Counted from the stretch's first letter, positions 8,575-63,246 are shown. The stretch: 64,000 bases of DNA from Eledone cirrhosa (GCA_964016885.1 OZ024740.1:33542001-33606000), one strand, 5' to 3'. Notes: generated by a model from the letters alone, not told the origin. Made by a program: numbers and translations.

Positions 8575-9034
8575 TGTCAGGTTCATAACCATTCCGAGGG
8601 TATTATCCATGTGAAGAATGAAATGAAATGTTTACAATTGAGAAGTGAAACTTAACCGAAGGCTCACTTTGCCGGCAGCTTATCTAGACGGCTCTTATCA
8701 ACACTAGAAATTGTTAGTTGACAAATGAAATAATTGTTTCTACTTTTGGCACAAGGCCAGCAATTACCAGTGCATTACTGGTACTTTATTTTATATTTCA
8801 TCCTTACGGGGTCGATAAAATAAAGTACCAGTAATGCACTGGTAATTGCTGGCCTTGTGCCTAAAGTAGAAACAATTATTTCATTTGTCAACTAACAATT
8901 TCTAGTGTTGATAAGAGCCGTCTAGATAAGCTCCCGGCAAAGTGAGCCTTCGGTTAAGTTTCACTTCTCAATTGTAAATATTTCATTTCATTCTTCACAT
9001 GGATAATACCCTCGGAATGGTTATGAACCTGACA
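8575..9034. repeat. Long inverted repeat (220-bp arms, 20-nt loop) centred on a truncated SINE
   Basis: 8575-8794 is the reverse complement of 8815-9034, with about 3 mismatches. Confidence 0.95.
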
Positions 9035-9234
9035 CAACCTCATTTCATCTTCTCTCAAAATCTGAAGTTTTGTAACAACGTGACAGATCAGTAATTTGTC
9101 ATATACAAATTATAATATATACTCCTATAATCGAATTAGTTATAATATATGGATTAAAAGCCGTTTCATAGATAATGTATAGCAATTTAAAGAAAAAGAA
9201 TAGAAATATAATTATCACCTACAAATATATGTAT

Positions 9235-9910
9235 AGATTTGACTGTTGATATCATGTAAAATTTCTACGACTTTCTACAGATGTAATATTTATAGATTTG
9301 TTTGTTGTAAAATATACACAACTTTCTACAGATATAAAATCTATAGACTTGTCTGTTGATGTGTAAAATATACACAACTTTCTACAGATGTAATATTTAT
9401 AGATTTGTTTGTTGTAAAATATACACAACTTTCTACAGATATAATATCTATAGACTTGTCTGTTGATGTGTAAAATATACACAACTTTCTACAGATGTAA
9501 TATTTATAGATTTGTTTGTTGTAAAATATACACAACTTTCTACAGATGTAATATTTATAGATTTGTTTGTTGTAAAATATACACAACTTTCTACAGATGT
9601 AATATCTATAGACTTGTCTGTTGATGTGTAAAATATACACAACTTTCTACAGATGTAATATTTATAGATTTGTTTGTTGTAAAATATTCATAACTTTCTA
9701 CAGATGTAATATATATGGATCTGTCTGTTGATATATAAAATATACACACCTTTCTACAGATGTAATATCTATAGACTTGTTTGTTGATGTGTAGAATATA
9801 CACACCTTTCTACAGATGTAATATCTATAGACTTGTTTGTTTATATATAAAATTTCTACAACTTTCTACATGGCATTGCCTGTTTATATGTAAAATATAT
9901 AAAACTTTCT
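9235..9910. repeat. Minisatellite with alternating ~42 and ~47 bp units
   Basis: Recurring aaaatatacacaactttctacagatgtaatat with two alternative spacers. Confidence 0.9.
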
Positions 9911-10449
9911 ACATTGAACAATTTCTTCTTTAACATGGTCCATAGTCTTCCTTGTTTGTTCAGACATATATATCTCTCTTAATAAATAGTGATAAAGTTT
10001 AAATAACTATCATGGGAAAACAAGACTGTTATTTTGTGTTATATATTATGTTTGAATTAATACTGAAACATTTCTAATTCCATATGTGTGCCTTATCATA
10101 TTGTTTTCTTTCTAAACTAAGGTTTATCTTTAGTAAGAAGATAGGAAATAAGAAGCACACCTTTAACGTGATTTTTAAAATAATATATTTATATACTCGT
10201 AAAATAATCTTTTATTTCACAAAAGAAAGTGTTAAATTATTCTTTAGGTTGCTTGTAAGCCTGAAATCTTTCTTTTTTATATCATTTTTTTAATTTCCTT
10301 GAGTTAACATTTTCACAATATTTGGTTTAAGATTCGGCAATATTATAAGTCTTATTTAAACAGAATAATAAATAATTTTATTTCCTGTGTCTGAGTTACA
10401 CTGTATAAAATATACATTTGTGATTCCATATCTTCCACTCACTAATGTA

Positions 10450-11080
10450 TAAACTTATATTGCTGGATGTATAATGTTAGTATATGTGAATGACCGAGCA
10501 CAAGTGAACTGAAAGAAAAGCTGAGTATAAGAGGAAGACGATTGTACTGGTATGGTCATGTGATACGTAAGTAGTGTGAGAGTTATATAAAAAATAAAAG
10601 GTTGTGTGCTTCAAAAGAATGGAACCTATGGATGAGGGAGACCAGAAAGACATGGGACAAAGTTGTGAATAACGATCTCAAGAAATCGAACCTTCTCAAG
10701 AGATGACACAGGACCAAGCTAACTGGTGGTATGCCAAAATATAAAGGACTCATCTACCCCTACAAGCATTGTGACACTAAAAATAAAATTGGTGAAAGAC
10801 TGGGGACTATAATGTTCATGATTGAACGAAGACAATATAGGGATTGAGAGGAATCTTCAGTTAGGATGAGAATGTGACAACCTCTCTAGTGTTTGTGCCA
10901 CAATAAAATGCAACCATTACACCTTGCAAGGTGGATGGCACTAGGAAGGCATCCAACTGTAGAAATTATGTGACATATGGAACATATGGGTGAGATGGAG
11001 TGACTTCAACAAGTTTTGACTCAGATTGTGACAACCTGTCCAACTGGTGGCAGAATGTAAAGTGGATGTAAAGTGATGTT
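10450..11080 (+). mobile_element. Degenerate RTE 3' fragments
   Basis: aagctgagtataagagga, tggtatggtcatgtgat and gggagaccagaaagacatggga match the RTE C-terminus (WYGHV, GRPxKTW). Confidence 0.6.
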
Positions 11081-12479
11081 TATATGTGTATATATATATA
11101 TATATATATATATATATATATATATATATATATATATTCGATTTGTGCTATCTATGCAATGTTTTGTATGATATACACATACTGAATTCATTTGCCAAAA
11201 TGTGGGGAATTTCCCCTTGTGACTTACGCATGTGCGTTTACAAAGTTCTGCGTCACTCGCAAAGTTGGTTACAGAGCAAAATTACCTGTTGATAACGTGA
11301 TATTCCTTGTTCGATCTTTATGCTGAAGGCTTATAGTTTTAAGCAGACAGTATTATTGATTTAGGTGTCATAGAAACCCTGCATTTGGATTTTACCATTT
11401 ATTCCATTTGGGTCCAGGTCTGTTTTTATCATTTATTTTGTTTGACCTGTTTAGCTTCATTTGTTTTTTGGCTTAGGTGGTTAATGCCTTCTTAACCACT
11501 TTTTCAGTTTGTATGGCGTTTTAACATATTGTTTAGCTCTAGTTTTCTTAACTATTGAGCGCTTGCCAACATTTCTACGATTTTGCGTTTCGTTTCGCTT
11601 TTTCTACCAGCCGAAATACGATTCTCGCTGAATTATATTTATATATATATATATATATATATATATATATCAAACCAAGTCCACCTTGTTAAAGTGGTCA
11701 TACTGGTGGCATGACAAAAAACACCCAGTCCACCCTGTAAAGTGGTCATGTTGGTGGCATGAAAAAAAAATGGCCAGTCCACACTGTAACTAGGAAGGGT
11801 ATCCAGCTGTAGAAACCAAGCCAAAAGACAGATTCATATGAATGTGATGTGGTCACCTGACATGACATGTTTCATAACATGACAACCTGTGGAAAAGCAG
11901 ATGTTAAATCATGATAATGGTAAGCCAGGGCCCCATAAGCCAGAGAGAAGGAAGCTCCTCTTGGAGAGCAGTAACTCCTAATGAATAATACTGCATGGGG
12001 TAAACAAAGACTCAGAAGTCATCTCAGCTAAGAGAGCAGTTATTCTCAATTAAAACTGATACAGGGTAAAGAGGATTATTAAATTTTCACATACCGACTA
12101 AAATGCATCCAGGTCCGTGCTGTAAAGTGGTTGGTGGTAAGAACGGCATCATGCCAGAAAACCTCAGTCCTTGCTGTACAGTGGTTGGTGATAAGAAGGC
12201 ATCTAGCCAGAAAACTTTTGCAAAAAAACTATGACGAGCACAACACATATTAAAAATAATTGTATATATATGGCTGACATTAATCATATTAATGCTGTGC
12301 AGTGTAGTTGGGCTGGTTAGCCTAAACTAGCACAATATATAGTATTAAAAATAGTTGTATATATATGGCTAACCCTAATTGTATTAATGTTGCACAGTGT
12401 AGTTGGGCTGGTTAGCCTAGCCAAGTGTAAGAACCCTCCCTAATCATCATCAATTAATCACACATTCCCTTTCAGGTAC

Positions 12480-13180
12480 AAAGAGCTAATATCAAAATAG
12501 GAAAATTCCTGTTGTGTAAATAAAACTTGGAATCAAAAGGGCTCAGAGAAAACCTAGCAAAGACCAAACTTTTAGTAAGTAGGAAAGAGGACAAGACTCT
12601 GATTTCATCAGGCAAGTGGCCATGCTCAATAGGTTGAAAAGGAGTTGGTAGGAACTCAATACAATGTACTCAATGTAAGATATAGGTACACAAGAGGTGT
12701 AGTGGGATTGTACATAGATTAACAGAAAATATAGACTTTCTATGTGACAGATGCACAGGAATAATGTGTTGTAAGATCAGCAGTGAAATAAACCTCCAGG
12801 GAGGTACCGTAAAAGTAGTTGATAGCTTCATTGATGCTCCATTGGATGTATAATGTTAGTTTATATGAACAACAGGGCATGGATGAACTGAGAGAAAAGG
12901 TGAGTATAAGAGGAATCAGATGTAATGTACACTGATATGGACGTGATGCATATGGAGGAGGAATGCTGGCTGAAGAAGTGTCAGGTGATTACCAGTGGAA
13001 GGAGTTTGCAGTAGAGGAAGATCAAAATAAATGTGGTCAGAGTAGGGTTATAGCTAATCTTAAAGCATTGGACCTCACAGAGGAGATAACAAATGAACGT
13101 TGCATGTGGTTAGAGGATGTATTGGAGAGGACCCATCCAATCCATGCAAGCATAGAAAAATGTATTTAAAATGATGATGA
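12480..13180 (+). mobile_element. Degenerate RTE LINE fragment including a zinc-finger remnant
   Basis: tcaggcaagtggccatgctca and ggtacacaagaggtgtagtgggat match the SGKWPCS/WVHKRCSG finger of the younger copies; ends in atgatgatgat. Confidence 0.7.
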
Positions 13181-62417: not shown

Positions 62418-62812
62418 TTATATATATATATATATATATATTATATATATATATATATTATATATATATATTATATATATATATATATATTATATATATA
62501 TTATATATATATATATATATTATATATATATTATATATATATATATATATATATATATATTATATATATATATATATATATATATATATATATATATATT
62601 ATATATATATATATATATATATTATATATATATATATATATATATATATATATATATTATATATATATATATATATATATTATATATATATATATATATA
62701 TTATATATATATATATATATATATATATATATTATATATATATATATATATATTATATATATATATATATATATATATATATATTATATATATATATATA
62801 TATATATATATA
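62418..62812. repeat. (TA)n microsatellite
   Basis: Direct inspection. Confidence 0.95.
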
Positions 62813-62849
62813 TAATATAAGATCAAAAGATGGTTAAAGGAGTTCAATA

Positions 62850-62920
62850 TATTTTATTATGCGCATTTCAAAAACAAACATCATCAAACAATAATATTTG
62901 TGTTTTCATCAGATAAAACA
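62850..62920 (-). ncRNA. Type I hammerhead ribozyme, mirror copy in the left palindrome arm
   Basis: Exact reverse complement of 63041-63111. Confidence 0.8.
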
Positions 62921-63040
62921 GGAGAACATGATATGAAGGCTAAAAAAACACTTGTTGATAGTGCAGTTTTAAATCAACATATGTTGATTTAAAACTGCAC
63001 TATCAACAAGTGTTTTTTTAGCCTTCATATCATGTTCTCC

Positions 63041-63111
63041 TGTTTTATCTGATGAAAACACAAATATTATTGTTTGATGATGTTTGTTTTTGAAATGCGC
63101 ATAATAAAATA
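63041..63111 (+). ncRNA. Type I hammerhead ribozyme
   Basis: Stem I tgttttat/ataaaata; CUGAUGA at 63049-63055; stem II 63056-63091 (caaatattat/atgatgtttg with G-U pairs); GAAA at 63092-63095; minimal stem III with palindromic UGCGCA; AUA cleavage triplet. Confidence 0.82.
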
Positions 63112-63246
63112 TATTGAACTCCTTTAACCATCTTTTGATCTTATATTATGCATACTCCAGTCCCACAAACTGTAGAGTGCTTCTTATCCGATATCTGCAT
63201 TGCTTTATTGTACTACAATAAAACTCACCTCCTACATATATATATA

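Follow-up and report, generated by a model that had tools for sequence, protein, structure and literature searches.

How the 5' ends of non-LTR insertions (LTR, long terminal repeat) are closed is still poorly resolved. The question is at issue in a 64-kb stretch of the genome of the octopod Eledone cirrhosa (GCA_964016885.1 OZ024740.1:33542001-33606000; this whole stretch is called the window below), in which retroposon copies adjoin inverted duplications at or near their 5' ends. A sequence-only reading had pointed to four such structures, at a short interspersed nuclear element (SINE), two hammerhead elements and an RTE long interspersed nuclear element (LINE), each taken for a 5'-truncated copy with its start mirrored immediately upstream, and had ascribed them to one general snap-back step of complementary DNA (cDNA). 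All four inverted repeats exist and exceed shuffled controls, one of them (S3) marginally; two further structures, S5 and S0, had been missed. We consider it probable, at roughly 65%, that the mirrors of S1, the SINE structure, and S5 (38018-38373) are scars of cDNA snap-back during target-primed integration, and that the two hammerhead-type palindromes, S2 and S4, are Penelope-like ends.

All counts come from this window and one set of public sequencing runs. A search for non-simple inverted repeats of at least 18 bp with arms within 3 kb returned 20 rows. Six of these correspond to five short-range structures, S0 having two rows, and the set was named S0-S5; one row, a 19-bp inverted repeat (21677/21857), was dropped as being at chance level, and the remaining rows are dispersed RTE copies paired in opposite orientation. 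Ten block-shuffled control sequences contained 0-2 inverted repeats of at least 18 bp each, with a maximum of 30 bp in one of the ten. The lengths of S1, S2 and S4 are far beyond these controls; S3 barely exceeds the longest shuffled repeat, yet both of its arms are sequence of a reverse-transcribing element.

The mirrored SINE at 8575-9034

S1 is made up of the following features.

8564-8579, plus strand: 16-bp exact repeat, read as the upstream target-site duplication
8575-8794, minus strand: mirror arm, the reverse complement of the SINE 3' part (60 nt), the duplication (16 nt) and the downstream flank (144 nt)
8795-8814, plus strand: loop, 20 nt, consisting of 1 extra base and the first 19 nt of the truncated SINE
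8796-8881, plus strand: truncated young SINE, positions 107-193 of the 196-nt reference (copy 40015-40210)
8875-8890, plus strand: 16-bp exact repeat, read as the downstream target-site duplication
8891-9034, plus strand: original downstream host flank, source of the mirrored part and sole copy in the window

The arms (8575-8794 and 8815-9034) extend over 220 bp with 3 mismatches and are separated by the 20-nt loop. The 16-bp direct repeat, which is the sole duplicated 16-mer starting within 7575-9199, is read as a target-site duplication, and all of the new DNA, mirror included, is enclosed by its two copies. The limits of the SINE (cut at 8796, end at 8881) were set against the full copy at 40018-40202. 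It is 98.9% identical to the reference, and in a second alignment all 86 aligned bases are the same, with 1 gap; the arm divergence of 3/220 fits an element this young. The SINE tail overlaps the duplication and matches its first 6-7 bases. At the outer joint, the last 5 nt of the upstream duplication (8575-8579) form a 5-bp microhomology with the end of the mirror, and only about 2 paired bases are found at the loop end. The sequence-only reading held that the start of the element is mirrored; this is true of S3, whereas in S1 the SINE's first 19 nt lie unmirrored in the loop, and 144 of the 220 bases in the mirror stem from downstream host flank.

The mirror runs unbroken across SINE, duplication and flank, and its template must thus have been the cDNA-plus-flank strand or the complement of that strand. 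Since the edge of the mirror coincides with that of the duplication and with the SINE 3' end, an unrelated later rearrangement would have had to meet these points by chance. Several familiar sources of inverted or displaced sequence were considered for S1 and rejected. Twin priming, which the sequence-only reading had described as giving inversions with essentially no duplication, is excluded by the downstream flank within the mirror: an RNA template cannot provide 144 nt of downstream genomic sequence. A 3' transduction is contradicted by the position of the flank outside the duplication and by its presence in a relative. In the case of a foldback transposon or a miniature inverted-repeat transposable element (MITE), the second copy of the duplication would be expected outside both repeats, not inside the right arm, where it lies; moreover, the flank portion has no other copy in the window, unlike dispersed foldback or MITE copies.

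Public sequencing runs bear on S1 as well. Seven runs from 3 studies were listed, of which 4 (2 studies) share words with 6500-8830; 4 of the 7 were compared. Two runs of the same species, X2 and X3, each gave an 870-nt contig (7735-8604) with 0 differences to the window, and both contigs end 30 bases into the S1 arm, as would be expected if a 31-mer graph (31 being the word length that we take the assemblies to have used) branches at an arm entered from two flanks. At position 8676, where the arms differ and which pairs with 8933, the letter is that of the left arm in X2 and that of the right arm in X3. The sequence-only reading had suggested short-read depth as a check, and depth at 8676 is indeed raised over that of the flank, to 16.2 versus 8.88 in X3 (1.8x) and to 9.09 versus 6.5 in X2 (1.4x). 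In X1, a relative about 89% alike over 8024-8489, flank and position 8676 are covered at the same depth (13.2 each) and the letter is that of the right arm, in keeping with one copy in its original state and, probably, a site without the insertion. Strand-changing joints were not counted as fold-backs, as other SINE copies split over both S1 arms. A restriction site-associated DNA (RAD) run, X5, has zero depth over 8528-8683 and is uninformative at S1. Farther upstream, at 7200-7830, run depth indicates a multicopy repeat, with no strong second copy in the window. Another SINE of the window, at 25394-25525, has kept its first bases and lost about 60 internal ones, and has a 12-bp target-site duplication as judged by eye.

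Other mirrors and their association with 5' ends

The second structure on which our reading leans, S5, lies at the 5' junction of a young LINE copy that we presume to belong to the RTE clade, as we do for that of S3; S0 lies at the very start of the window.

37747-37792, plus strand: S5, donor of the templated insertion, about 225 nt past the 3' tail of the RTE-like copy at 38018-38321
38018-38321, minus strand: young 5'-truncated RTE-like copy in a 24-bp satellite, with 298/299 aligned bases the same as 63252-63550
38322-38373, minus strand: S5, two-step inverted insertion at the 5' junction, from a reading of the junction
1-226, no strand given: S0, 110 nt (70-179) that probably form the end of a retroposon, with an (ATG)n tail; this tail and the downstream flank are mirrored, from the inverted repeat

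The S5 arms (37747-37792 and 38328-38373) are alike at 46/46 positions. The junction reads, in order, as a 5-nt microhomology, 5 nt copied, one extra base and 46 nt that stem from this donor as well. Since the donor lies on the strand of the cDNA, the junction points to two rounds of snap-back across a loop of about 530 nt. S5 lies within an intron of ABCC10, and its mirror copies flank only. S0, cut by the window start, has arms at about 1-69 and 155-226 that are 87.5% alike around an 85-nt loop; it is a probable retroposon, an identity taken from its (ATG)n tail alone, and it likely belongs to the same snap-back class as S1 and S5. The pair 38018-38321 and 39639-39937 was rejected as a fold-back: the tails point apart and near-identical copies are dispersed, so that we regard the two as separate insertions. 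The very young RTE-like subfamily, whose members are 97-99% alike, is represented four times in the window, in the regions 38018-39939, 50056-50664 and 63249-64000, and two young copies share one 24-bp ATG-type satellite in opposite orientation.

S3 is a case of its own, in which an RTE-like element is folded within a TA tract.

54242-54310, minus strand: S3 mirror (54242-54274), an exact mirror of the RTE start (33 nt), with a 36-nt (TA)nC spacer
54312-56506, plus strand: 5'-truncated RTE-like LINE of S3 with RVT_1, 88.9% identical to the near-full copy that extends from 57000 to about 60600 on the minus strand

The arms 54242-54274 and 54311-54343 agree at 33/33 positions, and through the TA tract at 51 bp with 1 mismatch. 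The (TA)nC spacer plus the next base matches the unit of the local satellite and may thus be target DNA to which the RTE 5' end had been linked before the fold formed in the (TA)n tract. The odds are about even on whether this happened during integration, at a cDNA end into which upstream TA had been copied, or later, through hairpin repair. The identity of the arms is not decisive on age, because at a second-position divergence of 4.3%, which is an upper bound, 33/33 would arise by chance with a probability of 0.23.

The near-full RTE-like copy contains Exo_endo_phos and RVT_1, its endonuclease and reverse transcriptase (RT) frames being split by one stop at about 59730; the RTE-like elements have (ATG)n tails. 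This copy and that of S3 (54312-59200) stand tail to tail in a (TA)n/CACATAATG satellite (56505-57001). We did not count 54312-56506 versus 57000-59200 as a fold-back: being about 89% alike and tail to tail, they are read as separate insertions of the same family. Three insertions crowd into about 550 bp of one TA satellite (53790-54343), an insertion hot spot: the tail of an RTE, the remnant S2 and the RTE of S3. Directly upstream of the near-full RTE, at 60784-62417, lie about three tandem 520-bp units (98% alike) with AT/AG microsatellites.

The two hammerhead-type palindromes were described from the sequence as follows.

54024-54222, plus strand: S2, palindrome 54024-54136 with an 86-nt one-sided extension, between (TA)n tracts
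62812-63228, plus strand: S4, palindrome centred on 62980/62981 that lies between TA tracts and continues on one side for about 79 nt

The sequence-only reading called both hammerhead elements, a description that holds for S4, which has a full minimal type I motif, and fails for S2, which is without the CUGANGA box. The S4 arms (62812-62980 and 62981-63149) are identical at 169/169 positions with no spacer. The minimal type I hammerhead, in which stem III is palindromic, lies at about 63041-63110 and is mirrored on the minus strand; the motifs at 63049 (plus) and 62912 (minus) are the only two matches of the descriptor in the window. In the predicted fold stems I and II form, with a z of only -1.15. 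The S2 arms (54024-54076 and 54083-54136) agree in 51/54 columns (94.4%) around a 6-nt loop. By eye, only the 3' half of such a hammerhead is seen in S2, made up of GAAAC, stem III and the GUC site, with one of these motifs missing from each arm, and the CUGANGA box is absent from both strands within one substitution. S2 would thus be at most half a hammerhead and a probable Penelope-like remnant. Neither structure is matched by the Rfam hammerhead models, neither remnant contains an RT or GIY-YIG open reading frame (ORF), and the window has no second copy of either family. Rfam gave 0 matches at the gathering score; E-value scans gave 95 and 66 sub-gathering matches, headed by generic microRNA-like hairpins, with no hammerhead family among them. 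In both S2 and S4, the mirror is shorter than the direct side and ends within the element, the tail is one-sided (about 86 and 79 nt) and the targets are TA, and these palindromes are likely ordinary Penelope-like inverted ends. For S2, the correction of a natural quasi-palindrome, formed by hammerhead stems I and II, is a possible alternative.

Are such palindromes associated with retroposon 5' ends? For each end, we asked for an exact non-simple 20-mer at most 60 nt upstream that recurs inverted at most 1 kb downstream. The test set consisted of 20 SINE and RTE elements in 22 entries, with the near-full RTE entered twice and S0 once; S2 and S4 were left out of the count, since their 5' truncation is readable only from the palindrome. 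Mirrors were found at 3/20 of these non-Penelope 5' ends, comprising 3/7 well-defined truncated copies, 0/4 copies with a full start and 0/9 old fragments, and S0, outside the 20, passed as well. Against a background in which 70/5104 sampled positions pass (1.4%, the structures included), the binomial P for 3/20 is about 0.002. The enrichment that the sequence-only reading had predicted is therefore present in the window, as an association and not as a rate. Between mirror and insert 5' end there is a distance of 1 nt in S1, 7 nt in S5, 0 nt in S0 and 38 nt, across the TA tract, in S3.

Proposed snap-back and its alternatives

In the series of events that we favour, two points are seen in the sequence itself, the duplication of the 16-mer target and the match of the SINE tail to its first bases. 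Reverse transcription, primed at the target, would have stopped at 8796; the cDNA 3' end, joined through the SINE to the downstream flank, would then have been extended by about one base and have folded back, with about 2 bases paired and a 20-nt loop left over. The sequence contains the product of the next step, a DNA-templated copy of 220 nt spanning cDNA, duplication and 144 nt of flank, and the copying of the flank implies that the other strand had to be resected or displaced. Finally, the new end would have paired with the terminal 5 nt of the upstream overhang, where the overlap is observed, and been filled in. In S5, two primings by the cDNA end at 38321 on its own strand, some 530 nt back, would have yielded 5 and then 46 nt. 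Polymerase theta would be the likeliest enzyme for S5, as repeated microhomology priming is typical of it, with the RT of the element as the alternative.

A number of points weigh against this reading. The sequence is compatible with either end having primed first. A mirror inside an insertion bounded by a target-site duplication is found in S1, and S5 and S0 have no readable duplication, nor do S2-S4, owing to satellites or the window edge. At S3 the outer joint shows a 1-nt microhomology with the TA satellite, and the (TA)nCA spacer may correspond to the 5' target copy, which would place the mirror outside the insertion. The mirror is absent at 17/20 ends; the settings of the enrichment test were chosen after the structures were known, the ends were set manually, and the window itself had been selected for its fold-back feature, so that rates and P value are inflated. 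The read check covers S1 alone among the six structures. X2 and X3 are one sample, possibly the source of the window itself, with library type unrecorded; their contigs pass the new joint (8579/8580) by 25 bases, under the 31-base bridging rule, the S1 loop is not spanned by any listed piece, and the depth ratio in X2 is 1.4, not 2. That X1 has the empty allele is a deduction from equal depth and one letter only.

The sequence-only reading would have a single host snap-back step produce every structure, the hammerhead-type palindromes included, which we regard as doubtful. All six structures are head-to-head, with a mirror never longer than the element-plus-flank side, and head-to-head Penelope palindromes have been read as products of self-priming (PMC3846280). 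On the other hand, inverted 5'-truncated copies with a one-sided tail are regular in the Penelope-like elements of many animals and have been ascribed to the cycle of these elements (PMC3846280, PMC8557442), the mirrors of S2 and S4 stop within the element whereas those of S1 and S0 enter the flank and that of S5 is flank only, and the 5' ends of S2 and S4 have no independent definition. An integration-tied fold-back is well supported for S1 (by its enclosing duplication, its microhomology and the apparent single copy in the relative) and likely for S5, but a single step for all classes does not follow: S4 and probably S2 fit Penelope-like ends, a feature that may be specific to these elements, and S3 may equally be a later (TA)n hairpin event. 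That later events made the mirrors in general, by replication template switching or by hairpin or cruciform repair at (TA)n tracts, with retroposons and mirrors sharing a preference for AT-rich microsatellites, is much less plausible than for S3 alone, where the odds are about even. S2, S3 and S4 all adjoin (TA)n tracts, the S3 fold is inside one, and the S3 arms are identical at 33/33 positions despite the decay of the RTE copy. But the S1 joints lack a (TA)n tract and its mirror begins exactly at the target-site duplication, S5 was primed at the exact truncation point, and TA tracts of the window without a retroposon 5' end show no such mirror; we hold a general post-insertional origin to be improbable.

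A templated insertion primed from the other side is improbable to a slightly lesser degree. In this scenario, once the second strand has been made, the upstream 3' overhang invades the downstream DNA at the 5-bp microhomology, copies back through flank and SINE and joins the 5' end of the insert, a process coupled to integration without self-priming of the cDNA. It yields the identical sequence, it uses the longer microhomology of S1 (5 bp at the outer joint, about 2 bp at the loop), and fold-backs placed upstream of the target in L1 insertions have been ascribed to DNA polymerases at the stage of final resolution (PMC10191854). It also demands an extra primer-independent step, given that the top strand is discontinuous at the duplication until second-strand synthesis; in S5, the first priming took place at the cDNA end itself, with a 5-nt microhomology, and R2 data show priming from the cDNA end (PMC11371274). 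Fold-back chimeric reads, which would make the palindromes sequencing or assembly artefacts, are a very remote prospect. Such a source might be suspected where a perfect zero-spacer palindrome lies beside a 400-bp TA tract, as in S4, which was outside the read check, and the S1 loop is spanned by no listed contig. Against it, the arms differ in S1 (3/220) and S2 (3/54), both S1 arm letters occur in contigs of the sample that run 25 bases beyond the new joint, and signatures of a biological origin are present in the target-site duplication and in the Penelope-like asymmetry.

Precedents, frequency and genomic setting

R2 uses a restriction-like endonuclease. In insertions made by R2 protein in human cells, snap-back is a named class of 5' junction, in which the cDNA or, less often, nearby target DNA is copied (Zhang et al. 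2024, PMC11371274), and such junctions occur at low frequency (PMC11331408). The likeness to the mirrors described here is close: the cDNA 3' end primes on cDNA or nearby target, and the antisense copy is fused to the upstream flank (PMC11371274). The R2 system is engineered and site-specific, whereas we are dealing with natural germline copies of a SINE and of RTE-like elements of the apurinic/apyrimidinic endonuclease (APE) type; in S1, moreover, the 16-bp target duplication has been preserved, with the copy continuing beyond the priming site for 144 nt of flank. Among somatic L1 insertions, fold-back inverted duplications of 52-220 bp were seen in 3 events (0.3%), and in 1 more together with twin priming (0.1%) (Nam et al. 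2023, PMC10191854); target-site inverted duplications are reported in PMC11702581 too. These resemble the present cases in being short inverted duplications at the 5' junction, ascribed to DNA polymerases in resolution, but they are rare and lie 5' upstream of the target (PMC10191854), whereas here cDNA and downstream flank were copied, in 3/7 well-defined truncated copies of a selected window.

For Penelope-like elements, minimal hammerheads 100-700 bp apart on opposite strands (PMC4209133) and inverted 5'-truncated copies, tails and, in some clades, (TA)n targets (PMC8557442) have been described. S2 and S4 resemble the inverted pseudo-LTR (pLTR) of these elements in their shorter inverted copy beside the 5' end and one-sided tail (PMC3846280), and S4 additionally in its minimal type I hammerhead with palindromic stem III on opposite strands (PMC4209133). 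They differ in having no RT or GIY-YIG ORF left, in the lack of the CUGANGA half in S2 and in tails of about 79-86 nt versus the 30-40 nt of published copies. Polymerase theta alternates between snap-back extension, templated in cis, and untemplated extension, with insertions of a median of 7 bp in vitro (Kent et al. 2016, PMC4912351), a pattern that S5 resembles in its alternating untemplated and in-cis templated extension and repeated priming. S1 is unlike such insertions, as its 220-nt copy needs a more processive step. In L1 twin priming, reportedly set out by Ostertag and Kazazian in 2001, the inverted 5' segment is copied from an upstream part of the RNA. The product likewise has an inverted 5'-side segment inside the target-site duplication, but twin priming cannot copy downstream flank or fully repeat the same 3' segment, unlike what is seen in S1, S5 and S0; it was ruled out by the 144 nt of flank in S1, the flank-only mirror of S5 and the repetition of the same 33 nt in S3.

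The novelty that the sequence-only reading saw in the step is overstated, with snap-back already described for R2 (PMC11371274) and fold-back duplications for L1 (PMC10191854). A literature search, largely limited to open-access text, found no report of such scars in a cephalopod or at a natural SINE, and close precedents may exist; the available passages of PMC12016303 contain none on fold-back, inverted duplication, templated or self-priming synthesis. The mechanism is of a known kind in clear natural form. What has been less described is that, in S1, copying went on beyond the priming site and into the downstream flank, all of it enclosed by a target-site duplication that is intact. S1 is in this respect an unusually clean natural record: with duplication, loop, flank read-through and microhomology all kept, it points to 220 nt of DNA-templated synthesis that ran through the priming site before joining.

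A high natural germline rate is what could be new. Snap-back might be a major route of 5' closure in octopods, used in at least 10% of truncated insertions of SINE, RTE and Penelope-like elements, versus 0.3-0.4% for human L1 fold-backs, and leaving near-perfect palindromes of copied host flank and many thousands of perfect hairpins in transcripts; we put this forward as speculation that is unlikely on present evidence. Octopods belong to a group known for heavy adenosine-to-inosine (A-to-I) editing. If the scars are frequent, thousands of loci would give the lengths of loop, tract and microhomology for a step that has been counted rarely in human cells, and the palindromes would confuse assembly and repeat annotation and be a possible source of double-stranded RNA. 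If the genome-wide rate is low, S1 is a neat instance of something already known to happen rarely.

The gene of the window is the octopus ABCC10, with a long exon 93% identical to the Octopus bimaculoides protein.

14483-53647, plus strand: ABCC10 exons, residues 1-1241 of 1543 (Octopus bimaculoides), from protein match

S2-S4 are probably intronic, because about 300 ABCC10 residues remain beyond the last exon found. The intronic position that the sequence-only reading assigned to its structures is consequently probable for these three and holds for S5, which it had not listed, while S1, whose distance upstream of the ABCC10 start codon is about 5.4 kb, gives it no support. Hairpin RNA is predicted from the structures, S1 folding in silico into a near-perfect duplex (-394 kcal/mol), and they are most likely neutral by-products. 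The opposed RTE-like copies at 54312-59200, in the same intron (probably of ABCC10), constitute an imperfect inverted repeat that would form a longer, less perfect duplex (2.2 kb, about 89%).

A pattern scan of viral and metagenome contigs for the SINE gave 0 loci, and the 17 metagenome loci found with an RTE-tail pattern were all dropped, as they share only 23-65 nt pieces with the window elements. Two that were inspected (L003:1960-4458 and L006:1495-3069) carry nested opposed elements with a 35-nt stretch resembling the octopus RTE 3' region, and they look like another organism's nested elements.

The rest of the window is filled with dense TA microsatellites, satellites, the SINE family, RTE-like LINEs and an LTR element. 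The latter is a minus-strand LTR retrotransposon (39939-44839; RT, RNase H and integrase) with LTRs at about 39939-40431 and 44525-44839 that are 98% alike; the full SINE in one of these LTRs has no target-site duplication and was primed on a short AT match. Intronic minisatellites are present at 21844-25291 (84 bp x 41), 35500-37716 (35 bp x 56) and 44900-47350 (24 bp x 100), and the 24-bp unit of the last of these is found again at 37815-38611.

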